Assembly: GCA_017617995.1 (NCBI GenBank)
Contig: JAFZVE010000072.1
Coordinates: 31,997 to 95,996 of the forward strand
Length of the DNA stretch: 64,000 bases
Direction of reading: 5' to 3'
Source: Clostridiales bacterium
GTDB lineage: Bacteria > Bacillota > Clostridia > Saccharofermentanales > Saccharofermentanaceae
The notes beneath the pieces were generated by a model. The model saw only the letters and a list, made by a program, of their open reading frames with translations. It was not told the DNA's origin and made no database searches. Within the stretch, counting starts at the first letter, position 1, and each line of letters opens with the position of its first letter. The translations under genes were made by a program, and so were the position numbers. Positions 3,637 to 41,468 of the stretch are shown here, piece by piece.

Positions 3637-4590
3637 TTAGAACAGACTGCTGTCCGTGATCTTCTTCGACGCGAAGTTCGCGATCGACAGCAGAACCAGA
3701 TTGATGAGGCCTTCGAAGAGTCCGACGGCCGTCGCATAACTGTAGTTACCTGATCCGATACCCATTCGGTACACATACGTCGATACGATGTCAGCCGAAG
3801 AGTAGATCATCGGATTGTAAAGCAGGAATACCTTTTCAAAAGCACCGCCCGATCCGACGAGTCCGCCGATGTCGAGGATCAGGAGTGTCGTGATCGTCGG
3901 AAGGATACTCGGGATCGTGATATGCCAGACACGCTGGAAATGACCGGCGCCATCGACAGCCGCCGCTTCATACAGATTCGGGTTGATGTTGGCCATCGCG
4001 GCAAGATAGAGGATCGTGCCCCAGCCGAGACCCTGCCAGAGTCCCGAGATCGTAAATATCGCACTGAAGTATTTCGCGACCGCCAGGAACTGGATGCGGG
4101 AACCGCCAAGTGCCTCGAGAAAACCATTGATCGGACCGGATGTCGCAGTCAGTTCCTTGATGATACCGCACACGATAACCATCGAGATGAAGTGCGGAAG
4201 ATAGGACACGGTCTGCACGAACTTCTTCCAGTGAAGATTGCGGATCTCATTGATGAGAAGTGCGAAGATCAGTGTCAGCGGGAAGCGGAAAAGAAGATAT
4301 GTGATGTTCAGGGTCAGTGTATTTCGGAAGGCTCTCCAGAAAGTCTTATCTCTGGTGAACTGCTTGAAATACTTCAGTCCGCTGTTTTCTGAACCGAAGA
4401 TATTACCGCCGGCTCTATATTTTCGGAAAGCGATGATGTTACCGAACATAGGGACATAACGGAATACGATGTAGTACACCACCGGCACCAGCAGCATCAG
4501 ATAGATCTGCCAGTAAAGACCGATATGCCGGCTCATGCTGAAGTGCTTCTTCGAAGGTGTCCACTCCGATTTCATTTGATTACTGCTCAT
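3637..4590 (-). CDS. carbohydrate ABC transporter permease (LplB/YteP, MalF-type)
   Basis: 317 aa and multi-TM, with the EAA-like loop YEAAAVDGAGHFQRVWHITIPSILP. The N-terminus resembles LplB-family permeases. Confidence 0.9.
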   Translation of the reverse strand: MSSNQMKSEWTPSKKHFSMSRHIGLYWQIYLMLLVPVVYYIVFRYVPMFGNIIAFRKYRAGGNIFGSENSGLKYFKQFTRDKTFWRAFRNTLTLNITYLLFRFPLTLIFALLINEIRNLHWKKFVQTVSYLPHFISMVIVCGIIKELTATSGPINGFLEALGGSRIQFLAVAKYFSAIFTISGLWQGLGWGTILYLAAMANINPNLYEAAAVDGAGHFQRVWHITIPSILPTITTLLILDIGGLVGSGGAFEKVFLLYNPMIYSSADIVSTYVYRMGIGSGNYSYATAVGLFEGLINLVLLSIANFASKKITDSSLF

Positions 4591-6741: not shown

Positions 6742-7581
6742 ATGAACCAGTCTTCTTTTGAACGCTTCACAAACAGCCGGCTGTATGCCCTCGGCGATAA
6801 GCTCGGGGACGTCTTCCTGCTTAGTTTCTTCTGGCTAATCTGCAGTATCCCTCTCGTTACGATGGGCCCCGCAACGAGTGCCCTGTACTACGCGATCAAC
6901 AAACGCTATGCGGACAAATCCGAGACGCCGCTGGCCGACTACTGGAGATCCTTCCGGCAGAACCTCGGTCAGGGGATCGCGCTGACCGTGATCCTACTTC
7001 TCTATCTCGGCGCGACCATCTTCAACGTATACGTCGCTTTTTCCGGATGGAACGGCATACGGCTTCCGTCCTGGTACGGTCCGGTCGCGATCTTGCTTCT
7101 GCTGCCGTTCCTCTTCACGGCGCTCTACGTCTTCCCGTATCTGGCGCGCTTCAAGAATTCTGTCGGAAGTATACTCTTCCACAGTTTCACCTTCTCGACG
7201 ATGTATACCGGGAATACTTTCATCATGTGGCTGTATGTCATCCTTTCCGTCGCCGTTATGATCTTCTTCTTCCCGGCCCTGCTCTTCATGCCGTTCATCT
7301 GCTGTTACCTCTGCTGGCGCCGCATCGAGCGCGACTTCGGCTATGCACTGCTCCTCAAGAAGAAGCGCGAGGAGGCTGCAATGGAAGAAGCGTCTGCCAA
7401 CGAAGAAGATGCGTCAGAGGACGAATCAGACGAGGATTCAGGGGACTCAGCGGAAGATCAATCAGACGACGCATCGGAAGAAGAGTCCGAGGACGAAATG
7501 GAAGAGGGCTCGGAGGATGCTTCGGAAGAAGAATCGGACGACGAAGAAGATACAGACGAAGTTGAGGAAGCCGACGAATAA
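6742..7581 (+). CDS. YesL-family (DUF624) membrane protein with acidic C-terminal tail
   Basis: ATG 6742 follows AGGAGGAGG. FERFTNSRLYALGDKLGDVFLLSFFWLICSIPLVTMGPATSALYY matches the YesL pattern. The last ~65 aa are D/E/S-rich. Confidence 0.8.
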   Translation: MNQSSFERFTNSRLYALGDKLGDVFLLSFFWLICSIPLVTMGPATSALYYAINKRYADKSETPLADYWRSFRQNLGQGIALTVILLLYLGATIFNVYVAFSGWNGIRLPSWYGPVAILLLLPFLFTALYVFPYLARFKNSVGSILFHSFTFSTMYTGNTFIMWLYVILSVAVMIFFFPALLFMPFICCYLCWRRIERDFGYALLLKKKREEAAMEEASANEEDASEDESDEDSGDSAEDQSDDASEEESEDEMEEGSEDASEEESDDEEDTDEVEEADE

Positions 7582-7773
7582 AGTTGTGTAGATTATCGGT
7601 ATTATTCGTTGAGATTATCGGTTGACAGTATTTTTATCAAAGTATAGAGTTCTAATGTACGCTTGTGGAGGGGGAATCGCGAACGGAAAACGTGCGGGTC
7701 CACAACGATCACGTGCAGGATTACAGTGCTTTTCCCGACACAAAGACGCAGAAAAATGATTTGTCTAATTCGC

Positions 7774-7805
7774 TTGACTTTATGCTAGTTTGCTAGTATT
7801 CTAGT
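7774..7805 (+). promoter_or_regulatory. candidate uxuA promoter with overlapping CTAGT repeats
   Basis: TTGACT-17 nt-TATTCT. The spacer and -10 carry TATGCTAGTTTGCTAGTATTCTAGTT, which is three CTAGT cores. Confidence 0.4.
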
Positions 7806-21586: not shown

Positions 21587-23161
21587 TCAGGTTTTGTGCT
21601 GAAGCGAGAAGAAATAGGTGTTCTCACGGATATAGACGCCACCGCCGAAATACTCGGATACATCTGTTTCCAACTCGCGCGGACCATCGAGTTCTTCGAT
21701 CAGTAACTGAACGCCATATTCCTGAAGTTCGATCGTGGCCTTTCTATAGAAGGTCTCGCCCGGATCGACCTGACCGTTGTAGTTTCTGTCATCCCAGCCA
21801 TGATACCAGAAGTTCGTGACATTCTGATTCAAAGGAAGGATGACCGGATCCAGTTCTGCCGTTCTGTAGAACCACAGATAGACCTCGATATTCTCACCGT
21901 CCTCATCCGCTAAGAGGAAAAGCTCGATACTGCCTTCGTTGATGGAATACCTACCGTTGTAAAGGGAGTAATCGCTGATCTCGCGGTACTCCGGCGTGTA
22001 ACCGAACTGCATGCCGATAAAATCATCATCTGTCGGGAGGTAACAGTTTCGCAGGTAATAGAGCGCCCTGTTGCAGTTGACGTATCCCCGGATCTCATGA
22101 TACGGAGTCGATGCTGTTGTTTCGCCCCACGGACCGGCATCTCCGACGATCATATCATAGAGTGTGAATTCTCTTGCTATAAAGTCCATGTGATTCTCCG
22201 TTCTCAGCTCAGCGATACGGTTCGAATATGGTATATAGGTGAAATAATCACTGGAGTCGCAGTACAACTGCTCAAGAACGGGACATGGTTCCCCATCTAA
22301 GTATGTATAGATACTTAAGTAATAGCCATCGTCCACTTCGGACATATCGGAGATAATGAGCTCAGGGATATCATCGGTATTCAGATGCATGAAAGAAGCT
22401 CTCACTTTATAGTTTCCGTCGTACTGCTGCAGGATCGTCCGGTAGTAGTAATCATTTAATGTGTCAAGCGTGATGTATCCGTACTGACATAGACTCGGAT
22501 CCGAATAAGATGTTTCCGATTCATAGGTATCTTCGTCATATGCATCCTCTTCATATTCATATACATCGTCTGCATTTGCATCTTCTGCCGGAGCCTGCGA
22601 CTCTTGCGGCTGCTCTACCTGCCTCTCTGCCGGGGCGGTTTCCGATGATTCCGCCGGGGCCTGTTCCTGAGTCGCTGCCGGAGCCTGGGTTTCGCTCTGT
22701 GCAGGTGCCTGGTTCACGCCCTGTGCAGGTGCCTGGTTTCCTGACGCGGCCGGAGCCTGGTCATCAGCCTTCGCAGGGTCCTGTGTCGCAGCCGGAGCCT
22801 GGTCAGATGAGTTCGCTTTCCCACTGTTTCCGCTTCCTGCATCTACGCTCTTCCCCGCCTGACCGCCTGCATTTGCGGTTGCTGTTCCATTATTGGTCTC
22901 AGCAGAAGAACGATTTCCTGAAAGAACATTCTTTCCGCTTCCGTCATCCTGCGGAGAGATAACATTGCCGTCCTCATCCGTGACAACAGGCTGGGACCCG
23001 TTCTGTTTTTCCGAACCGTTCAGATACGTATCCGCGATTCCCGAGACCAGCGATTCGATCTGCTTTTCATCACCATCAATTTCCAGAGTGCATCCGGATG
23101 CGCCGAGCGCTACGGAAACCGTAAGTGCCAATACCGCTGCCATCGCCTTCATCTGTTTCAT
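21587..23161 (-). CDS. secreted lipoprotein with QAPA-rich linker and C-terminal domain paralogous to the BlaR1-like sensor domain
   Basis: MKQMKAMAAVLALTVSVALGASGC is a lipobox, with a GGAGG RBS. The C-terminal ~300 aa align by eye with the C-terminus of 23512..25983. Confidence 0.8.
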   Translation of the reverse strand: MKQMKAMAAVLALTVSVALGASGCTLEIDGDEKQIESLVSGIADTYLNGSEKQNGSQPVVTDEDGNVISPQDDGSGKNVLSGNRSSAETNNGTATANAGGQAGKSVDAGSGNSGKANSSDQAPAATQDPAKADDQAPAASGNQAPAQGVNQAPAQSETQAPAATQEQAPAESSETAPAERQVEQPQESQAPAEDANADDVYEYEEDAYDEDTYESETSYSDPSLCQYGYITLDTLNDYYYRTILQQYDGNYKVRASFMHLNTDDIPELIISDMSEVDDGYYLSIYTYLDGEPCPVLEQLYCDSSDYFTYIPYSNRIAELRTENHMDFIAREFTLYDMIVGDAGPWGETTASTPYHEIRGYVNCNRALYYLRNCYLPTDDDFIGMQFGYTPEYREISDYSLYNGRYSINEGSIELFLLADEDGENIEVYLWFYRTAELDPVILPLNQNVTNFWYHGWDDRNYNGQVDPGETFYRKATIELQEYGVQLLIEELDGPRELETDVSEYFGGGVYIRENTYFFSLQHKT

Positions 23162-23270: not shown

Positions 23271-23314
23271 TAGATTTTTCTACATTTGTAGAAATTTTTT
23301 CTATATTTGTAGAA
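23243..23314. promoter_or_regulatory. three BlaI/MecI-type operator dyads (TTCTAC-N4-GTAGAA)
   Basis: TTCTACACATGTAGTA at 23243-23258 overlaps the -10. TTCTACATTTGTAGAA is at 23278-23293 and TTCTATATTTGTAGAA at 23299-23314. All carry the TACA..TGTA core known for BlaI/MecI. Confidence 0.65.
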
Positions 23315-23511
23315 TTTCTTTCAGGGAAAAGTGCTTTTCGCGCGGTAAAAAGCCATCCCCGAAAGGCATTTCGCCTTCCGGTGACGGTTTTCTACAAATT
23401 TAGAATAATAACAGAAGAAGCCGGGTTCTGTCCCGGCCCGGAGATGTCGCACGTCGTAGAATCAGACCCGCACGCCGCCAGCAGGATCAGACAGTTCTTT
23501 CGCCGGCAGGA

Positions 23512-25983
23512 TCAGGTCGTTCTGTCGTCGAAGGTATAGTACTGTGTCTGCGCGGAGATATAGTCACTCCTATAGAACTTGCTGATCACATTCAGGTCCC
23601 ACACGAACTCCTCCCGGGAAATATCCTCGAGCGTGACCTTGATCCCGTCAGACAGAAGTTCGACAGTGCCTTTGCGGAAGAGCAGCTCGTCATCTTCGAC
23701 TATGTTATTGTAGTTCCGATCTACAACGATCTCATCATAGAATACGCAGATATTGTCTTCTATAGGAAGTGTGACCTCATGAAGTTCGGCCCCGGCAAAG
23801 AAATACCAGCTGATCGTGATCCTCTGATCGCCTTCATAACGGAACGTGAACTTCGTATATCCGTTTGCAGTTGTATAAGTACCATCGTACTTGCTGTAAT
23901 CATCGATCGTCATGCGGGTCGGCTGATACCGCCCCGGTGTCGTCTCGGACGGTGTCTCGTAAGGATCGGTATCCGAAGGGGTCTCATAAGGAGTTTCGTA
24001 AGGAGTCTCATACGTGGACTCGTACGGGGTCTCATAAGGGGGCTCGTAAGGCGTCTCGTACGGATCCGAAGTATCGTACGGCTGCTCGTAGATGTCCGTG
24101 GCCGTAGCCATACCGTCCGAAGTCGGCGCCATCGGGTCGGCCGTCGCATCCGTGAGATCCGTCACATCTGTCGTATACTCATCTGGATCCCGTAGCATCC
24201 GGTACGGGTGTCGTTCATAGAGCGCATCGATCGGGATGTTACCGAGTTCCAGGTGCTCGATCGTCTGTTTCGCACTCTCATAACCGACCACCACCCACGA
24301 AGGTGCATTTTTATCATAAGGAATCGCCGTCCCATCCTGCTCACCAGAATAATCCATCATCCAGAACCGGTAGATGAAGTACTGCGGCGTGCTGTTCTCG
24401 TCGCTACCGGGCGGAACAATGTAGCTACAGAAGGCATTGCTGTAAGGACAGTAACAGTAGAACCAGTCCTCTATCTCGTTCACATACGACGACTCGATCA
24501 CCGTATACAACTGGCCGTTCTTAAAGGTGTAAACCGAGAGTACGTATTCCCATGTTTCGTAACTGTTTGTGTAGTCCGAGATCACCAGCTCCGGGTAGAA
24601 ATCGTCGTCGATGTGCGGGAGGAAATACAGAATATTGTCATTATCCCTTCCGTATGAATCGATGATTTCGATATAAGCCTGCGCGCATTCATCCATGAGA
24701 TAATCCGTCGTCTCCGATGTGGACGGGGATGTGGACTCGGATGTAGCCGATGTTTCCGACTCCGGAGTAGTCTCGGATGTGCTTTCCACTGCCGGCGCCG
24801 TCGTGCTTTCCGAGCCTTCCGTCGCCGAAGAGGGTACACTCTCCTCTGTCTTCTCCGTCTCTTCACTCTCCAGCGACCTTCCCGCTTTTTCGAGGAAATC
24901 CTCCAAGGAAGTACCGTACGAACGCGACGACATGAGGAGCACGACACTGCAAGTGACGATGACGGAGATAAGCATCATGTACTTCGAGTGCTTCCTGTTC
25001 TTAAGAAGATTCTTGATGCGCATCTTCGTCTCCATCCCGCCGAAGCCGAGGCCGCTGAATGCCGTCTGCTGCAGGAACGATCCCCTTCGCTCGAAACGCG
25101 CATGCTCGACCAGTGAACGGCAGTACTCCTTGACCATCTCCATATCGAAAGCAAGCGTCGTCTCTTCGTCCACGCGCATCTCGATGTCGGCGCAGAGGAT
25201 GACGAACGACAGCCATACGAGGGGGTTGAACCAGTGGAGGCAGAGCACGAAATAGCTGAAGAGCTTGGTGATGCCGTCCTTATTCTTGATGTGCGTCCAC
25301 TCGTGGTTGAGGATGTATTCTTTCTCATCGTCATCGAGATGGACCGGGATAAAGATCTTCGGTCTTATGAATCCGATGACGAACGGGGTCTCGATATTCG
25401 TGGTGAAGTACCGCCCGTCGTAGGCGCGCGAGTTCCATCTCGCCTTCGAATAAAAGAGGATATACCGGACGGTAAAGAGGATGACCAGTCCGACTACGAC
25501 GACAAGCCAGATGATCGCGAAGACGCGGAATACCCGGGCTTCGGACTTACTGAGTGTTTCTTTTTCTTCTGCAAATGCACTTGTCCCCGCATCTTTTGTT
25601 TTTGCGGTTTTTCCCGTGCGTGCCTCTTCCGCTTCCGGATCTGTGATTTCTTTTCCTTTCGATATCGATTCAACTTCGTCTGCGTCATTCTTGATTAGAC
25701 CGGAGTCTGCACCATTTTTGAGATCGGCCGCGCCCGAGTGCTTTTCGAGCGTGACAGACTCAGCAGCCTCGCTCGACCCGCTCCAGAGCCGGCTTATATT
25801 CAGCACACTCGTCGGCATAGCCAGATTAAAGGGGCAGATCAGGCGGAACGCGACGACCAGCCAGAAGAGGATCAGGATCCGCTTCGGGCATTTTCTGAAA
25901 ATGAGCCGGAACAGAAGCACGATCAGGATCGCGATGCTCCCGTAGAGGCTCATTTCGAGAATCTTTGCAAACACTGCGTTCAT
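23512..25983 (-). CDS. BlaR1/MecR1-like M56 peptidase signal transducer with non-canonical extracellular domain
   Basis: The HEWTHIKNKD zinc motif sits in a multi-TM N-terminal half. The start is taken as ATG 25983 (MNAVFAKILE...), while the track start 25998 is a TTG overlapping the blaI stop. The C-terminal half has a Ser/Thr/Glu linker, PYET repeats and a domain shared with the lipoprotein. Confidence 0.8.
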   Translation of the reverse strand: MNAVFAKILEMSLYGSIAILIVLLFRLIFRKCPKRILILFWLVVAFRLICPFNLAMPTSVLNISRLWSGSSEAAESVTLEKHSGAADLKNGADSGLIKNDADEVESISKGKEITDPEAEEARTGKTAKTKDAGTSAFAEEKETLSKSEARVFRVFAIIWLVVVVGLVILFTVRYILFYSKARWNSRAYDGRYFTTNIETPFVIGFIRPKIFIPVHLDDDEKEYILNHEWTHIKNKDGITKLFSYFVLCLHWFNPLVWLSFVILCADIEMRVDEETTLAFDMEMVKEYCRSLVEHARFERRGSFLQQTAFSGLGFGGMETKMRIKNLLKNRKHSKYMMLISVIVTCSVVLLMSSRSYGTSLEDFLEKAGRSLESEETEKTEESVPSSATEGSESTTAPAVESTSETTPESETSATSESTSPSTSETTDYLMDECAQAYIEIIDSYGRDNDNILYFLPHIDDDFYPELVISDYTNSYETWEYVLSVYTFKNGQLYTVIESSYVNEIEDWFYCYCPYSNAFCSYIVPPGSDENSTPQYFIYRFWMMDYSGEQDGTAIPYDKNAPSWVVVGYESAKQTIEHLELGNIPIDALYERHPYRMLRDPDEYTTDVTDLTDATADPMAPTSDGMATATDIYEQPYDTSDPYETPYEPPYETPYESTYETPYETPYETPSDTDPYETPSETTPGRYQPTRMTIDDYSKYDGTYTTANGYTKFTFRYEGDQRITISWYFFAGAELHEVTLPIEDNICVFYDEIVVDRNYNNIVEDDELLFRKGTVELLSDGIKVTLEDISREEFVWDLNVISKFYRSDYISAQTQYYTFDDRTT
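23941..24090 (-). repeat. coding 12-nt tandem repeats (PYET repeats) inside the BlaR1-like gene
   Basis: The protein reads PYETPYEPPYETPYESTYETPYETPYETPSDTDPYETPSETTP. The DNA shows reiterated GTCTCGTAAGG/GTCTCATAAGG-like units. Confidence 0.8.
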
Positions 25984-25994
25984 CGGGGCAGGCC

Positions 25995-26372
25995 TCAATC
26001 TTCCGTGTGGTTCTCGATCATCTCGATCAGTTTTGCGGCGTCATCTTTGCTCAGGCTCTTCTTGCCGCCGCTTCCGAGAAATGCACTTACGAAGCTCGGC
26101 AGCGATCCTTTGAAGTTCTTCTCCACCACTTCATTACTCTGCTGGTGCTGGACTTCCTCGCGGCGCACGAGATACGTGATCTTCGCCTTGTTGCTCGCGA
26201 CAAAGCCCTTATCGGACAGGCGCTTGATCATGGTATAGACGGTCGTCTTCTTCCATCCGTGCAGCTCCGCACAGATGTCCGACAGCTCGCCGGAAGAAAT
26301 CGGAGCACGATCCCAGATCAACTCCATCAGTTTAAATTCACTATCACCTATCGAATTGTCTTTCATGGGCAT
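25995..26372 (-). CDS. BlaI/MecI/CopY-family transcriptional repressor
   Basis: 125 aa. The winged helix EFKLMELIWDRAPISSGELSDICAELHGWKKTTVYTMIKRLSDKGFV is present, with an AAGGAG RBS. It lies directly upstream of the M56 gene. Confidence 0.9.
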   Translation of the reverse strand: MPMKDNSIGDSEFKLMELIWDRAPISSGELSDICAELHGWKKTTVYTMIKRLSDKGFVASNKAKITYLVRREEVQHQQSNEVVEKNFKGSLPSFVSAFLGSGGKKSLSKDDAAKLIEMIENHTED

Positions 26373-26394: not shown

Positions 26395-26423
26395 ATTCTA
26401 CCCATGTAGAACTCCGATGTCAA
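26395..26423 (-). promoter_or_regulatory. sigma-A-type promoter of the blaI-blaR1-like operon (TTGACA-17-TAGAAT)
   Basis: The minus strand reads TTGACA (26423-26418), a 17-nt spacer and TAGAAT (26400-26395). Confidence 0.6.
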
Positions 26424-26445
26424 GAATCATTCTACTTTTGTAGAA
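26396..26445. promoter_or_regulatory. two BlaI/MecI-type operator dyads
   Basis: TTCTACCCATGTAGAA at 26396-26411 overlaps the -10. TTCTACTTTTGTAGAA is at 26430-26445. Confidence 0.65.
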
Positions 26446-26612
26446 GAGCATCACAGTTCTGCGAAGAGCAACGCCTGATGGTAGTTTCATCCGAGGTCAC
26501 GAGGTTTCCCTTATTCTGTTGATAACTCGTGATACAGATACGAAAAAGCGTCATGAGGTATTTCTCATTTCGATGAAACCTCGTGTCTTCGAATTCGAGA
26601 GTCCGCTTGAAT

Positions 26613-26974
26613 GCAAGAGGTCAGCGCTTTTCCGGCTTGACCTCTTGTATCGGGGCGAAGAAAAATACAAGAGGTCGACAGAATTTCGACTTGACCTCTT
26701 GTATCGGGGCGAAGAAAAATACAAGAGGTCGACAGGATTTCGACTTGACCTCTTGTATCGGGGCGAAGAAAAATACAAGAGGTCGACAGGATTTCGACTT
26801 GACCTCTTGTATCGGGGCGAAGAAAAATACAAGAGGTCGACAGGATTTCGGCTTGACCTCTTGTATCGGGGCGAAGAAAAATACAAGAGGTCGACAGGAT
26901 TTCGACTTGACCTCTTGTATCGGGGCGAAGAAAAAAACAAGAGGTCGACAGGATTTCGACTCGACCTCTTGTAT
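26613..26974. repeat. tandem array A: one degenerate plus six near-identical 54-bp units, each built from a 12-bp inverted repeat
   Basis: GACCTCTTGTAT starts at 26639, 26693, 26747, 26801, 26855, 26909 and 26963, an exact 54-bp period. ATACAAGAGGTC starts at 26665 and every 54 bp thereafter. The linkers alternate between CGGGGCGAAGAAAA (14 nt) and GACAGGATTTCGACTT (16 nt). Confidence 0.95.
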
Positions 26975-27003
26975 CAGCATCATTCTCGTTTTCCGTTTAG
27001 TAT

Positions 27004-28419
27004 TCAGATCCTCGTTCCGCACTCCTGGCAGAAAGCGCCTGTAGGCGGAAGCGGTTTTCCGCAGTTCATGCAGAACTTCGGACGTGCTGCCTGCGGTGCT
27101 GCCGGAGCCGCTGCCTGGGCGGGCGCTGCCGGTGCTGCTGCCGCGCCAGCATCCGCGCCTTCCCACAGTTCCTTCGGATAGCCGCTGTTCTTAAGGAAGT
27201 TCACCGCATTTACCTCGGAGCCGTCCGGGTATGTCGGGCCGAACATCTTCTTAGCTTTTTCCGCCTCGATCGCCGCGCCCTGAAGCGGAGTCAGACCCTG
27301 AGCTTTCCAGTTCGCGAGCTGCTGCTGACGGGCCGCTTCCATCGCAGCCTGCATTTGTGCCGCCATCTTCGCCGGATCGCTGGCGAGTTCCATCTTCTGC
27401 GTCATGCTATCGAGCTTCATCTTTTCCTTGCCGTCCATCGTGATACTACCGATCGTGATCTCGAGTACATTGTCGCCGGAATTACGAAGTTCCTCGGCTG
27501 CCTTCTGTGCGATCTCATCGGCCTTGCTTCCGAGATCCAGCACCGATACATCGCGCAGATTCATCAGCTGCATATTGATATTCATCACGACCATGTCCGC
27601 CATCATCGAGAGTTTCTTCTCATAGTAATCCGGCTCGAACTTGGTCATATCGATCGTATACGTACCGCTCATGTCGATCTTGCAGGTCATTTTTGTCTTC
27701 GCATCACGCATCGCCAGTGTCGCTGTTCCACCTACCGAAGAAAAAGCGGCGGTGATCCGGTCGACCTTCGCCGTCGGAACCGGGCCTACAGGCGCAAGTG
27801 CTTTTTCAAAGATAACAAAAGGCTTCTCATACTGTGCAGCACCGCCGAGCTGGCTCGCCATTTTTGCTTCTTCGACCTTCTCCCGCTCTGCTCTCGCCTG
27901 CTGCTTCGCGGCTCTTGACGCATCGCTCTCTCTTAAAGAAATGTGCGAGATATCTGTTCTTACCTGCAGTCCCAGCGCCTCGATCTTCGGGAAAAGCACC
28001 GGATCGAATTCCTTGTCGCGCATCATGATCGAGGTCGCGCCGAGCATCGTGCCCTTCGCCTGCTCTTCTTCCTTGATCTTCAGGATGAATGCCTTCGCCT
28101 CCGGGACCACGGTCTGGTAGATCTTCCCCATCACTTCCTGCTCTGTGCGGAAGGGAGCACCCTCGACAGGGATGACGTTGAGGACGCCGTTCGGGACGAT
28201 GGTCTCCTTGCCCATCATCGACTCGATTTCCACGCCGACTTCTGTTTTCACGCGGATCGCGATCGTCTTACCGGGTGTGATCGGCGTGCCCTGGGGCTGT
28301 GCCATCGGCTGCTGCATCGGCATGCCCTGCTGACCTTGCATTGGAGCCCCTGCCTGGCCCTGGAACGGAGCCGGCTGACCCTGCATATTGTTACCATTCG
28401 GATTCTCGAAATATCCCAT
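27004..28419 (-). CDS. hypothetical protein with Q/P/M-rich N-terminus and C-terminal zinc ribbon
   Basis: Trimmed to ATG 28419 (MGYFENPNG) after GGGAGGAAG. The C-terminus FCMNCGKPLPPTGAFCQECGTRI is a CxxC..CxxC motif. The central part is charged and helical. Confidence 0.7.
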   Translation of the reverse strand: MGYFENPNGNNMQGQPAPFQGQAGAPMQGQQGMPMQQPMAQPQGTPITPGKTIAIRVKTEVGVEIESMMGKETIVPNGVLNVIPVEGAPFRTEQEVMGKIYQTVVPEAKAFILKIKEEEQAKGTMLGATSIMMRDKEFDPVLFPKIEALGLQVRTDISHISLRESDASRAAKQQARAEREKVEEAKMASQLGGAAQYEKPFVIFEKALAPVGPVPTAKVDRITAAFSSVGGTATLAMRDAKTKMTCKIDMSGTYTIDMTKFEPDYYEKKLSMMADMVVMNINMQLMNLRDVSVLDLGSKADEIAQKAAEELRNSGDNVLEITIGSITMDGKEKMKLDSMTQKMELASDPAKMAAQMQAAMEAARQQQLANWKAQGLTPLQGAAIEAEKAKKMFGPTYPDGSEVNAVNFLKNSGYPKELWEGADAGAAAAPAAPAQAAAPAAPQAARPKFCMNCGKPLPPTGAFCQECGTRI

Positions 28420-28484
28420 GTTTCTTCCTCCCTTGTTCCACAAATCTACTTGAGAATATTATATCAGAAAAGCACTTCTCCCGG

Positions 28485-29861
28485 TCACGATTCCGTCTCT
28501 TTTGCCACACGCGCGGCACACCAGTTCTCGAATTCCTGTTGCTTGGCATAGGACTCGAAATAGTACTCCTGAAACTCCGCCATCTCACTATCAGCGGCAT
28601 CTTCCTTCCAGTAAAGATACAGCCACGGTCCATCGCCGCCGGCCTCGAGTGATTCCTTCCGGCGCATCACTTTGCCACCTGAGATCAACTCCCATATCTT
28701 GTCGCACTCCTCGGCCGTGAGCTCGATCTTTCCGGAGTCTGTCACATCGGACTCCTCCAGCGGCCAGTGATCGCCCTCCCTTTTCTCGTGATAGAGGAAC
28801 CATTTCCCGTCCTCGCAGAGGATCTCGTAGCGCTGGAAGGTCGGCGGATCTGTCGAGTCCGAGCGGGTGAACCGGAATTCCTTCATCTGCTCGCGCGTCA
28901 CTTCGTCACCCACCACATACTCATATTTCGGAGTATTCTTCGCCATGAGCGATTCTCCATTTTTAATCGCATCCGTCATTACAGTGGCCGCCGTGAGGCC
29001 GAAGCCACCGAAAAACATGGCCGCCGAAAGCCCGCCCGCGATGGCAAACTTCGTAGCTTTATGGTGTTCGGGATCGATAAGCATCATGCCGGTCACGAGA
29101 AGGATCGGTGCGGCAAACGCGAAAAACATATATGCACCGAGCGCCGCGACGCCGTTGATTTCCATCACCTGCTCTGCCGAGCTCTCGGTGTTGATGAACT
29201 GATTGCCGAGATAGCTCAGCGTCGCCGCCGCGAAGTTATTGAGGAAATGCATGAGCATCGGAAGAAGAATATTGTTTTTCTTAACAAGAAGGTACGACAT
29301 GATCGCACCAGCCGTCGCCGTACTCAGAAACCGAAGCGGCGACCAGTGCATGATACCGAAGAACACGCCCATGATGAGGACGATCACCCAGTCTTTCTTA
29401 ATCGACCGGAAATGGGACAGCACGCAGCCACGCTCCATCGACTCTTCACAGATCGCCGGCAGAAGCGCTACGACGAGCACCATCTCGAGGTAATTCATCT
29501 TTCCGTAGAGGAAATCCGACAGTCCCGTCACTTCGCTTCGGACGGACTTCGGAAGGACTGCGAGCGAGATACCGACACCCACCATACTGAAGAGAAATCC
29601 GGTCACCGCGAGAATCACGACACCCCAGAATTCTCTGCCCGTGATTTTCTTTACCGGGAACATCTCACGGAGTTTGACACGGCGGATGAGGCAGTACAGT
29701 ACCGAAACGACCAGGAACATCAGCTCGGATCCGATGAGTCCGGGGATGCCGTATGTTCTCTGCATCCACGCGCCCGCCGTGAGAAATAGTCCGAGAAAAC
29801 CCGCCTGTACCACAAATCCCATCCATGGGCGGAGTTTCTTCTGATTCGATACCTGTTCCAT
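28485..29861 (-). CDS. CPBP-family intramembrane glutamic endopeptidase with soluble C-terminal extension
   Basis: Motifs EESMERG, FGIMHWS and HFLNN lie in a multi-TM protein. An extra soluble domain of about 170 aa follows. Confidence 0.8.
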   Translation of the reverse strand: MEQVSNQKKLRPWMGFVVQAGFLGLFLTAGAWMQRTYGIPGLIGSELMFLVVSVLYCLIRRVKLREMFPVKKITGREFWGVVILAVTGFLFSMVGVGISLAVLPKSVRSEVTGLSDFLYGKMNYLEMVLVVALLPAICEESMERGCVLSHFRSIKKDWVIVLIMGVFFGIMHWSPLRFLSTATAGAIMSYLLVKKNNILLPMLMHFLNNFAAATLSYLGNQFINTESSAEQVMEINGVAALGAYMFFAFAAPILLVTGMMLIDPEHHKATKFAIAGGLSAAMFFGGFGLTAATVMTDAIKNGESLMAKNTPKYEYVVGDEVTREQMKEFRFTRSDSTDPPTFQRYEILCEDGKWFLYHEKREGDHWPLEESDVTDSGKIELTAEECDKIWELISGGKVMRRKESLEAGGDGPWLYLYWKEDAADSEMAEFQEYYFESYAKQQEFENWCAARVAKETES

Positions 29862-39141: not shown

Positions 39142-40323
39142 ATGCAGAAGATCCCGCCACTTCCCAACTATGACGAATGTCTCGTCAACCTTGCAAATTC
39201 CATGCTCGTGAATTTCGGCGCCAAGCCAAGTGCGAAAACACTGCCGTTGGCCGACCGTTATCTTTCGAAAAACTATAAGAACGTGGTGGTCCTTCTTCTC
39301 GATGCGATGGGAACATCGATCATCGAGAAACATCTTGCGCCGGACGGACTTTTCCGTTCGCACCTCGCCGGCAGTTACAGCTCGGTTTTCCCACCGACGA
39401 CTGTGGCCGCGACGACAGCGGTGATGACCGGAAACTACCCTTGTGAGACCGGATGGCTCGGCTGGGACTGCTACTTCCCGCAGCTTGGCAAAAATGTCAC
39501 GGTATATCAGAACGCCGATCAGCTCCTGGAAAAAGGTTCACCTTTTGCCCGCACGTCGGAGATAACACTCGACGAAGATGGCATTCCGGCACTCGAAGAG
39601 CCGCTACCTGCCGCAGACTATAATGTCGCTTTTACATACATCCCTTACGCGAGCCTCTATGACAAGATCAAGGAAGCCGGTGGCCAGGCGCACTTCGTCA
39701 CGCCTTTCGTACCACCCTTCCCGCAGACGCTCGACGAGATCTTCGCGCGCATCAAGGAGATCTGCACCTTCTCAGGGCGCAACTTCATCTACTCCTACTG
39801 GTCCGAGCCGGACCACACGATGCACCTGACCGGCACGAAGAGTGACGACACACACGCGGTCATCACCGAGCTCGAGAAGCGCGTCGCCGAACTGGTCGAC
39901 GATCTCTCCGACACGCTCGTTTTCGTCACGGCCGACCACGGACACATGGACAGTAAAAACCTCTGCATCCTCGATTATCCGGAGATCATGAAGTGCCTCG
40001 TCCGCATGCCCTCGATCGAGCCGCGTGCACTGAACCTGTTTGTCAAAGAAGAATATAGGGCCGAGTTCCCGGCGCTTTTCGAGAAGACTTTCGGCGACAA
40101 ATTCCAGGTGATTCCGAAAGAAGAAGTCATCGAGCGGAAACTCTTCGGCCCCGGCACAGAGCACCCGCTCTTCCGCGACATGCTCGGGGATTTCCTCGCC
40201 ATCTCGATCGCGGAGGTTTCGCTCTTTAACACGCATAAGGAAGCTGCGCTCATGCCCGGCGGCCACGCAGGACTCACGAAAGAAGAACTCGAGATCCCAT
40301 TGATCGTGATTGAGAAAAGCTGA
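39142..40323 (+). CDS. alkaline phosphatase family protein (type I phosphodiesterase/nucleotide pyrophosphatase-like)
   Basis: VVVLLLDAMG and VTADHGHMD metal-ligand motifs, with RBS AAGGAG. Confidence 0.8.
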   Translation: MQKIPPLPNYDECLVNLANSMLVNFGAKPSAKTLPLADRYLSKNYKNVVVLLLDAMGTSIIEKHLAPDGLFRSHLAGSYSSVFPPTTVAATTAVMTGNYPCETGWLGWDCYFPQLGKNVTVYQNADQLLEKGSPFARTSEITLDEDGIPALEEPLPAADYNVAFTYIPYASLYDKIKEAGGQAHFVTPFVPPFPQTLDEIFARIKEICTFSGRNFIYSYWSEPDHTMHLTGTKSDDTHAVITELEKRVAELVDDLSDTLVFVTADHGHMDSKNLCILDYPEIMKCLVRMPSIEPRALNLFVKEEYRAEFPALFEKTFGDKFQVIPKEEVIERKLFGPGTEHPLFRDMLGDFLAISIAEVSLFNTHKEAALMPGGHAGLTKEELEIPLIVIEKS

Positions 40324-40369
40324 GTTGTTCCAGTGAAGAATGCAGGTCTGGTTGATGCCGTCCTGTCTT

Positions 40370-40596
40370 CAGTCTGATTTCTGTCTAATTTCACCCCTTT
40401 GATTAGACAGATATCAGACCAGAAATCGCTTCAGTCAGATAAATGCCCTTTCTTTCGCTGATCATCTGACTGGAAAAGCACTTCAGTCTGATTTTCCGTC
40501 AGATAGGGCACAAAATCAGACAAATCATCAGAATAATAAACACACAGTCTGATATTTGTCAGATGGCACCCCTTTCATCAGACAGATATCAGACTG
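40370..40596. repeat. hairpin-repeat cluster B1 (CAGTCTGAT / ATCAGACTG family, four hairpins)
   Basis: Left arms start at 40370, 40432, 40484 and 40545. The outer hairpins are ~52 bp (20-bp arms, 12-nt loop containing CACCCCTTT). Confidence 0.9.
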
Positions 40597-40620
40597 GCTT
40601 CATATTCAAACAAAATCAAG

Positions 40621-40854
40621 TTAATAAATCGTCCGGATCTTCCCCGGCTCCACGCCGACTTCCTCACAGAAAAGCGCGATCTCCGCGGGCGACGTGACCT
40701 TCCTCACATCGTGGTACTTCCCCGTCGCGCGGTCCACAAATCCCACCGTCGTCTCGCCCGTGCAGATGCTCTTGTGCACGACCGGTTCTTCCTTCTCCGG
40801 GTCCCACTTTAGCGCCTCTTTCGCGGCGTCTTTCTTACCGAATAATCCGAACAT
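40621..40854 (-). CDS. small conserved hypothetical protein (77 aa)
   Basis: Trimmed to ATG 40854 (MFGLFGKKDAAKE...SICTGETTVGFVD...). It resembles a small protein family common in Clostridia, with no assigned function. Confidence 0.55.
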   Translation of the reverse strand: MFGLFGKKDAAKEALKWDPEKEEPVVHKSICTGETTVGFVDRATGKYHDVRKVTSPAEIALFCEEVGVEPGKIRTIY

Positions 40855-40928
40855 CGCGCACCTTCCTTTCCCTGCAACTATCGCAGCCGCTTCCTTGCTT
40901 TCCTCGCGAAATGCACTTTCCCCAGGGA

Positions 40929-41468
40929 TTACATCTTCTCGCACAGCGCGAGTATCTCCTCCCGATGCGCGGCGACGTCCTCCTTATACTCCACCGAAAC
41001 CATACCGAGATTTCCCGCGCACTCGATCTCGAGGTGCCCGTAGAAATGCTCGATGCTGCCGATGAGCCGCTCACACTCTTTCATGTTCGGACCCGTCCGC
41101 AGCGCGACCGCAAAACCACGTTTGCTGGAAGAGAGTTTCGCATGCGGCTCATGCGTATTGCACCACGGCGTCACGCGGTCGATGAAGGCCTTAAACTGAC
41201 CCGGAATATCCGCCCAGTACGACGGCGCCACACAGACGATCACGTCAGCATTTTCGAACTCTTCCATCAGAAGATCGACATCGTCGTGCTGCACACATTT
41301 TGCCGTCTTATGACAGCTCCGGCACCCCAGACAGAAACTGAATTTGTAGTCATCGATACAGACGCTCTTGGTTTCATATCGACTCCCGAGTTCCCCCGCG
41401 ATGATCCCGACGATCTCCGCCGTCGCTCCGTTTCTCACCGGACTGCAATTAATCACCAAAGCCTTCAT
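40929..41468 (-). CDS. flavodoxin-family / iron-sulfur flavoprotein-like protein
   Basis: ATG 41468 follows GGGAGG. MKALVINCSPVRNG and the Cys cluster CLGCRSCHKTAKC are present. Confidence 0.75.
   Translation of the reverse strand: MKALVINCSPVRNGATAEIVGIIAGELGSRYETKSVCIDDYKFSFCLGCRSCHKTAKCVQHDDVDLLMEEFENADVIVCVAPSYWADIPGQFKAFIDRVTPWCNTHEPHAKLSSSKRGFAVALRTGPNMKECERLIGSIEHFYGHLEIECAGNLGMVSVEYKEDVAAHREEILALCEKM

Follow-up and report, generated by a model that had tools for sequence, protein, structure and literature searches.

A strictly tandem array of 54-bp hairpin units between a zinc-ribbon gene and blaI as a candidate member of an undescribed repeat family in rumen Clostridiales

Several described bacterial systems place short palindromes in series outside coding sequences. 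Repetitive extragenic palindromic (REP) sequences and the bacterial interspersed mosaic elements (BIMEs) and REPINs related to them, known from Enterobacteria and Pseudomonas, are extragenic imperfect palindromes of ~35-40 nt that occur at many loci, with an enrichment at gene 3' ends and in the spacers of convergent gene pairs, often in clusters—and they can act as mRNA 3'-end stabilisers and as weak terminators. Mycobacterial interspersed repetitive units (MIRUs), the minisatellites of the mycobacterial variable-number tandem repeat (VNTR) loci, are intergenic tandem repeats of 40-100 bp with many loci, a strain-variable copy number and an uncertain function, and they often overlap the stop and start codons of the flanking genes as small open reading frames (ORFs). 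Here, we compare these systems with array A, a run of seven 54-bp hairpin units located between a zinc-ribbon gene and the blaI promoter in a 64-kb stretch of DNA from a Clostridiales bacterium (contig JAFZVE010000072.1; the whole stretch is called the window throughout). Our analysis of the sequence shows that array A is one local, copy-number-variable representative of a family of tandem hairpin repeats that has not been described before and that lies behind many unrelated genes in uncultured rumen Clostridiales.

Extragenic palindromic repeats and minisatellites are well known as kinds of element, and it is the strictly tandem, array-only arrangement, the 54-nt period and the rumen Clostridiales host that set this family apart. 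Dispersal of the REP type was observed, with ~11 further loci, several arrays per contig and one locus only within the 64-kb window. Unlike BIMEs, whose units alternate in orientation, the arrays contain units that are all direct and hold a fixed 54-nt period; no solo units were found in ~250 kb of flanks, the unit lacks the conserved 5' GTAG of REPs, and the host belongs to a Clostridiales lineage. Moreover, a scan of 19 proteins encoded next to the arrays—with most window and flank genes lying outside that scan—yielded no transposase, whether REP-associated tyrosine transposase (RAYT)-like or Y1. MIRUs differ in another respect, in that they are not built on a strong conserved hairpin, whereas the present units are non-coding hairpins. 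Arrays of clustered regularly interspaced short palindromic repeats (CRISPR) share with array A a partly palindromic repeat of ~36-40 nt at a fixed interval, an occurrence in arrays only and a degenerate terminal unit; however, many small arrays per genome were found here behind housekeeping genes, with no cas genes nearby. The linkers, moreover, are 14-18 nt long and identical within the window, and no cas domain was detected among the neighbours, in keeping with an earlier reading of this DNA from the sequence only, which had dismissed a CRISPR. Among the three resemblances proposed in that sequence-only reading, the one to BIME-type REP clusters proved relevant, while those to F plasmid sopC and to type III antitoxin arrays failed the tests that define these systems.

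Anatomy of array A and its dispersed family

Array A spans positions 26597-26974 on the minus strand and comprises seven 54-bp units, six of them near-identical and one diverged. It begins 30 nt past the stop codon of the zinc-ribbon gene, in the 3' flank of that gene, and ends ~170 nt short of the blaI -35 box. Tandem Repeats Finder placed the repeat at 26636-26975, with a period of 54, 6.3 copies, 98% matches, no indels and a score of 652. Between 26611 and 26974, a search for the 12-mer GACCTCTTGTAT on both strands gave 14 matches at 0-1 mismatch, with the strand alternating every 26/28 nt; outside the array, just seven scattered matches exist in the 64 kb, each with two mismatches, and no further ones lie inside the array region. 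The resulting total of 21 matches compares with 4.25 expected, and none of 100 shuffles reached it. On the plus strand, the unit reads as the 12-mer, CGGGGCGAAGAAAA, the inverted 12-mer and GACAGGATTTCGACTT, which sum to 54—the period and the four-part unit proposed earlier, with each part exactly as it had been given. On the minus strand, the same unit reads as ATACAAGAGGTC, AAGTCGAAATCCTGTC, GACCTCTTGTAT and TTTTCTTCGCCCCG, i.e., a 12-bp hairpin with a 16-nt loop and a U-rich tail, with 5/12 stem pairs being G-C and a predicted folding free energy of -16.3 kcal/mol.

The six near-identical units (26651-26974) are 0-2 bases apart, which bears out the near-identity noticed previously. Unit 1, the closest to the zinc-ribbon gene, has a predicted energy of -18.4 kcal/mol and the tail TTTTTTCT, with seven U and with 9 T among the first 10 tail nucleotides. 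Units 2-6, starting on the minus strand at 26920, 26866, 26812, 26758 and 26704, continue from the stem into the tail TTTTCTTC. The terminal unit described earlier as degenerate is indeed diverged, and is the one nearest to blaI (unit 7, 26597-26650). Unit 7 is similar to the units found at the orthologous site of a related contig, L013 (see below); on account of this likeness it is probably of an older type, and the six homogeneous units represent a recent expansion. Two decayed units of the same superfamily sit between the array and the blaI promoter (Table 1), and these are almost unchanged in L013 in spite of the divergence of the array there. When the 64-kb window was searched with a profile of all family units, no unit beyond this array was found.

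To gain a broader view of the repeat, metagenomes were scanned for two consecutive hairpins of the form CAAGAG-N20-24-CTCTTG. The scan returned 32 stretches, of which 24 carry arrays of 2-13 units, and these collapse to ~11 independent loci besides the window once overlapping contigs and strain variants are merged. The remaining eight (L020, L023, L029, L031, L032, L040, L041 and L046), all from hot springs, were rejected as family members, being unrelated clusters of a short motif; their contigs carry dense CCAAGAG/CTCTTGG motifs spaced 10-11, 44-45 and 53-55 nt apart. Family arms are CAAGAGG/CCTCTTG and the period is 54, at times 53 or 55, with GATTCAAGAGGTTTtctCGAAAAGcgCtaAACCTCTTGAaTttTTTCgccgcaGGA as the sense-strand consensus; the window unit aligns with the family units over its full length. 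The linkers bear a consensus across loci at lengths of 14-18 nt and are identical or near-identical within the window. A second unit type (type-B), with arms ACAAGAAyC/GrTTCTTGT and a period of ~53, adjoins some of the arrays, and its loop and linker are closer to the window unit than those of type-A units are. One such type-B block lies behind an FtsH-like gene (L034 11819-12122, equal to L019 2394-2700, and L038 10554-10752), inverted with respect to the type-A block.

The arrays neighbour unrelated housekeeping genes that differ at every locus. Some of these were recognised by reading the sequence (FtsH-like, BioY-like, aconitase-like and RNase J-like) and others by Pfam (a serpin, an SNF2 helicase, a secreted ribonuclease and a phosphodiesterase). 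One locus (L026/L036/L044) is syntenic with the 33-52 kb region of the window, with proteins 44-84% identical, and ~73% for the two genes flanking the array slot; the hosts are therefore relatives of the organism of the window. At that slot, the window has no CAAGAGG array and instead carries about four long GTCTGAT/ATCAGAC hairpins (40330-40600), between the convergent genes 39142-40323 (+) and 40621-40944 (-). This cluster is a second, different hairpin-repeat family in this genome. Corresponding 3' intergenic slots are thus occupied by different hairpin-repeat families in relatives.

Searches in other collections set the boundaries of the family. It had been suggested that the arms be sought elsewhere and their copy number compared; the exact arms matched just five unrelated single hairpins among 185,579 representative genomes, and it was the broader pattern described above that led to the metagenome loci, where copy number does vary. 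No match was found in a scan of viral contigs, in blastn searches against plasmids and phages, or in Rfam 15 at gathering thresholds for the window and four related loci; hits obtained in Rfam E-value mode (XIST_intron, MIR1031 and similar) were at chance level and were discarded. Literature searches by topic and by arm sequence gave nothing relevant, the sequence matches being loops of short hairpin RNAs.

Conservation, copy number and genomic placement

Comparison of the zinc-ribbon locus across relatives gave a graded picture. Contig L001, 99.9% identical in DNA, has six units where the window has seven, and two contigs with an identical zinc-ribbon protein (L002 and L003) end within the array. 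In L013-L016, whose zinc-ribbon protein is 78% identical, the units are all 54 nt apart, numbering eight in L013 and L014, while L015 and L016 break after five. In L009-L012 (protein 87% identical), two units are followed by unrelated sequence and contig ends: the unrelated sequence cuts the array inside the 3' arm of unit 2 (L010 7534-7662, also in L009, L011 and L012), and all four contigs stop 135-246 nt from the zinc-ribbon gene. This interruption may be the insertion of a repeated mobile element. No units were found in L049 (45% identical), and L050 (44% identical) contains a different repeat, GGTCTGAAT/ATTCAGACC, with a period of 61 and 2.4 copies; these hairpins occupy the same intergenic slot (4269-4491), and the blaI-blaR1 module is absent there. 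The heterogeneous L013 array, located by synteny so that its identity figures are unbiased by the search pattern, shows an uneven divergence: between units, the arms (GCAAGAGG/CCTCTTGC) are 95% identical, the loops 63% and the linkers 46%, and the 54-nt spacing is kept throughout with no indels despite the divergence. In L013, the U-tract survives in no more than the first two or three units, and at the zinc-ribbon locus the first units have the best U-tracts in both species.

Pairing within the stem was assessed on an alignment of 62 units from all subfamilies, using a 13-bp stem. Stem cells are paired in 84.9% of cases against 76.5% in shuffles, a level attained by 0/500 shuffles and in which type-B rows are undercounted, as MAFFT places the type-B gap inside the stem. 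Double-sided changes were observed at 7/13 stem pairs (e.g., one pair occurs as U-A, A-U and G-C, and a second as G-C and A-U), and the covariation score of 0.247 exceeded that of the shuffles (0.118; 0/500 reached it) and of slid controls (at most 0.117). The base at position 7 of the 5' arm frequently fails to pair with C28, which does not vary. A candidate helix within the loop was rejected, since its mutual information reflects subfamilies and not pairing, and there is no conserved inner helix.

Copy number differs at at least five loci between stretches whose flanks are 97.5-99.9% identical: seven units in the window against six in L001 (flanks 99.9%), two in L034 against seven in L038 (97.5%), six in L026 against four in L044 (98-99.9%), five in L024 against six in L028, and seven in L033 against six in L037—values that come from assemblies of short reads, in which tandem repeats can collapse, with several contigs breaking inside the array. 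The recent amplification or homogenisation postulated from the sequence alone finds support in this comparison, given the six units of the 99.9%-identical strain and the eight heterogeneous units of the species with a 78%-identical protein. The same sequence-only reading had regarded copy-number variability with no phenotype in close relatives as a mark of a neutral minisatellite; of these two features, the variability was found.

Array placement was examined using a codon-model gene caller (score >8), as length-based calls were misleading in this G+C-rich DNA, with array orientation assigned by the unit profile. Across the ~11 loci, six arrays lie between convergent genes, four between tandem genes and co-oriented with them, one (BioY) between tandem genes and anti-oriented, and none between divergent genes; the window is a further tandem co-oriented case. 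Every array adjoins at least one gene 3' end. In L026, the array begins at the stop codon of one gene and occupies the spacer in full, up to the stop codon of the convergent gene. A tie between orientation and replication strand was considered and rejected, with the sense strand being G-rich at seven loci and C-rich at four, and no relation to GC skew.

Terminator stack and competing explanations

We give an even chance to the proposal that array A is a REP/BIME- or MIRU-like hairpin minisatellite that serves here as a terminator stack, and termination is most likely its role at this locus. In this proposal, whose transcription, termination, stabilising, insulating and slippage steps we infer from the sequence, the array would be transcribed as the 3' end of the operon formed by the Rce1-like and zinc-ribbon genes. 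The hairpin of unit 1, with its seven U, would end most transcripts, and the later hairpin-plus-U units would serve as reserve terminators and would obstruct 3'-to-5' exonucleases; the stack would thereby insulate the blaI-blaR1 operon from read-through. The blaI promoter lies downstream of the array, and blaI therefore has its own start. Units could be gained and lost through slipped-strand mispairing or unequal recombination between repeats. Array A resembles an intrinsic terminator in having a stem-loop and U-tract directly past a stop codon on the gene strand, with no other hairpin between the zinc-ribbon stop codon and the array. Unit 1 passes a scan for hairpins with a T-tail and scores like other window hairpins, the same scan finding terminator-like hairpins—several of them canonical and GC-rich—behind 13 other window genes. 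In the window, the unit profile also gives a higher score for the minus strand (33 bits) than for the plus strand (17 bits); together with the scan, this upholds the minus-strand hairpin and U-tract described earlier. In the 122 units of the family, the mean number of T in the 8 nt that follow the stem is 3.1 on the sense strand and 1.0 on the antisense strand.

A number of observations weigh against this proposal. The loops of 16 nt in the window, and 12-16 nt in the family, are larger than the 3-8 nt of typical intrinsic terminators, so that a terminator scan limited to loops of 3-8 picks the inner 5-bp stem only, and the modest G-C content of the stem likewise departs from the short-loop, GC-rich pattern. 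Array A also differs from intrinsic terminators in its seven near-identical copies, in the recurrence of one sequence family behind unrelated genes and in the many family members that lack a good U-tract: first units have weak U-tracts (3-6 T in 10 nt) at 9/12 loci, so termination is not clearly a family-defining property. The core CAAGA/TCTTG is invariant across subfamilies, and the AAAA of the loop, which was outside the search pattern, is conserved in 111-112 of the 122 units at three positions and in 101 at the fourth; a plain terminator would need neither. The BioY-locus array is antisense to both flanking genes, and at the FtsH locus the type-B block runs opposite to both the genes and the adjoining type-A block. 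The short-read origin of the copy numbers counts on the same side. Finally, G.U exceeds A.C on the sense strand when counted per unit (37 vs 9 and 36 vs 17 at two stem positions), with the excess almost gone per locus (32 vs 24); folding at the RNA level is therefore not demonstrated, and support for one strand over the other as the folding strand is weak.

Several of these points would be expected of a selfish or neutral hairpin minisatellite—slippage-prone and harmless at 3' ends, or mobilised by an enzyme, with no use beyond a single hairpin—which we regard as a tentative possibility. Copy number varies freely among near-identical strains, an array held by one relative may be missing from the orthologous slot of another, with flanking proteins ~73% identical (L026 vs the window), decayed units lie next to young ones, and both the many weak U-tracts and the one antisense array fit such an element. 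Yet the zinc-ribbon-locus array has been kept in three lineages in which the neighbouring protein is 78-100% identical, the contrast between arms and linkers requires selection or ongoing conversion, the first units of both species retain the best U-tracts, and the scan of 19 neighbouring proteins gave no transposase or RAYT-like protein. The invariant stem base CAAGA/TCTTG, the A-rich run in the loop, the near-fixed length and the array-only occurrence would also fit cis-elements of an undescribed trans-acting system, in which a dedicated protein encoded elsewhere recognises each hairpin; such a protein might be a nuclease, a mobilising enzyme (HUH or other) or a factor that binds RNA or DNA, and it would either make the arrays or use them, for instance as processed small RNAs or as a binding sponge. 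We consider this rather improbable. An improbable explanation at the DNA level takes the units as phased palindromes bound by a nucleoid-associated, partition-like or replication protein, along the lines of F plasmid sopC or iterons. Tandem direct repeats that each contain an inverted repeat are the shared feature with sopC, and the conservation of the CAAGA/TCTTG sequence itself (not merely of its complementarity), the period of 54 (+/-1) held even in the diverged L013 array, the restriction of units to arrays and the weak per-locus asymmetry of wobble pairs agree with it. No par, rep or DNA-binding partner gene adjoins any array, however, and the neighbours of array A encode zinc-ribbon, Rce1-like, BlaI and BlaR1 proteins with no parA/parB (sopA/sopB). 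In addition, the context is chromosomal and housekeeping with no plasmid or phage similarity, many arrays occur per genome, all of them at gene 3' ends and none in the divergent spacers that carry promoters, the mismatch of position 7 with C28 breaks the dyad symmetry for a dimeric binder, and the half-sites lie 26-28 bp apart, centre to centre.

The array could also be processed into small RNAs, with each 54-nt hairpin being recognised by a nuclease or binding protein as in type III antitoxins, CRISPR or protein sponges, a scheme that we find quite improbable. Like ToxI, CptI and TenpI, the array consists of short tandem repeats of near-fixed length that could form one RNA, its units occur in arrays only, the hairpin and the A-rich loop are conserved, and the features that define orientation are alike at all loci. 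ToxI-type units, however, measure ~34-45 nt and form pseudoknots in the toxin complex, whereas the present ones are simple hairpins behind unrelated genes. The gene downstream is blaI, with its own promoter, and no toxin domain (ToxN/AbiQ/CptN/TenpN) was detected at the other loci. More broadly, no ToxN/AbiQ-type, Cas or other nuclease gene was found nearby, neighbours vary by locus, and the linkers bear a consensus instead of being unique spacers; Rfam returned chance matches only, and a consistent CsrA GGA motif is lacking. The earlier statement that no par, RAYT or toxin gene lies adjacent therefore holds among the neighbours scanned. Control of blaI-blaR1 in cis, through an upstream binding platform or an attenuator, is highly unlikely: the array lies ~170 nt upstream of the blaI promoter, an arrangement that recurs in L013, but it stands upstream of that promoter and hence outside the blaI transcript, the TTCTAC-N4-GTAGAA palindromes at the promoter are unrelated to the repeat arms, and related arrays lie behind many genes with no blaI nearby. 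The dispersal of the family over many loci argues against a role dedicated to either blaI or the zinc-ribbon gene. Lastly, since 54 nt correspond to 18 codons, four of the six frames stay open over the array, with ORFs of 129-220 aa crossing the array (26519-27181 on the plus and 26621-27166 on the minus strand of the window) and a 184-aa ORF annotated by a gene caller across the L001 array (7239-7793). A coding repeat is nonetheless effectively refuted, as no array-overlapping ORF passed the codon-model threshold (score >8), periods of 53 and 55 in related arrays break the frame, and no gene was called over the L013 array.

If the minisatellite-and-terminator proposal is correct, a clade of uncultured rumen Clostridiales would have its own extragenic hairpin minisatellites, with a role like that of REP/BIME in Proteobacteria and with strictly tandem 54-nt units. 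This bears practical implications: such arrays break short-read assemblies, yield spurious ORF calls such as the one in L001, can be mistaken for CRISPR, and may be usable as VNTR-type strain markers. The presence of different hairpin families in the same 3' slots would also offer a system for following the origin, spread and turnover of terminator-like palindromes, and any dedicated enzyme.

Flanking genes and further observations in the window

The features of the array and of its immediate surroundings are collected in Table 1. The window is chromosomal in appearance, with ~53% G+C and a steady negative GC skew, and no tRNA or Rfam match was found in it.

Table 1. Coordinates of array A and of the features around it in the window
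Feature	Position	Strand	Description
Rce1-like gene, preceding the zinc-ribbon gene	28485-29861		
Zinc-ribbon gene, upstream of the array	27004..28443	-	479 aa (longest ORF) or 471 aa (called start); C-terminal zinc ribbon
Unit 1	26921..26974	-	Hairpin ACAAGAGGTC / GACCTCTTGT, then TTTTTTTCTT; best terminator-like unit
Units 2-6, near-identical	26651..26920	-	54 nt each; 12-bp stem, 16-nt loop AAGTCGAAATCCTGTC, tail TTTTCTTCGCCCCG
Unit 7, diverged, nearest blaI	26597..26650 (hairpin 26611-26650)	-	Loop AAGCCGGAAAAGCGCT, 3' arm GACCTCTTGCAT, no U-tract; profile 22.8 bits
Two decayed units of the same superfamily, 54 nt apart	26498..26586	-	Arms CACGAGGTTT / AAATACCTCATG and CACGAGTTAT / AAACCTCGTG; weak hidden Markov model match at 26555-26586
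blaI promoter	26423-26395 (with operator region 26395..26440)	-	TTGACA-17-TAGAAT; two TTCTAC-N4-GTAGAA palindromes overlap the promoter
blaI	25995..26372	-	Penicillinase_R family repressor
blaR1-like gene, following blaI	23512-25998	-	M56 peptidase; the N-terminal 300 aa alone match Peptidase_M56

Two motifs in the window unit were considered and set aside. A CsrA sponge had come into question through an AGGA in the plus-strand loop, a motif that is not conserved in the family. Each window unit also contains a weak promoter-like sequence on the plus strand (TTGACC-18-AAAAAT, 26637-26882, 9/12), which is particular to the window unit and missing from the family consensus.

The palindromes at 26395-26440 we take, from what is known of BlaI/MecI operators, to be putative BlaI operators; an exact look-up of the BlaI protein returned no record. 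Two further copies of TTCTAC-N4-GTAGAA are found at 23275-23322, upstream of a 524-aa gene (21587-23161, minus strand), and this recurrence suggests that the gene belongs to the BlaI regulon. The BlaR1-like protein, finally, has a long C-terminal extension that includes a 12-nt coding repeat present seven times (window positions 23976-24060), which encodes a PYET-type peptide repeat.

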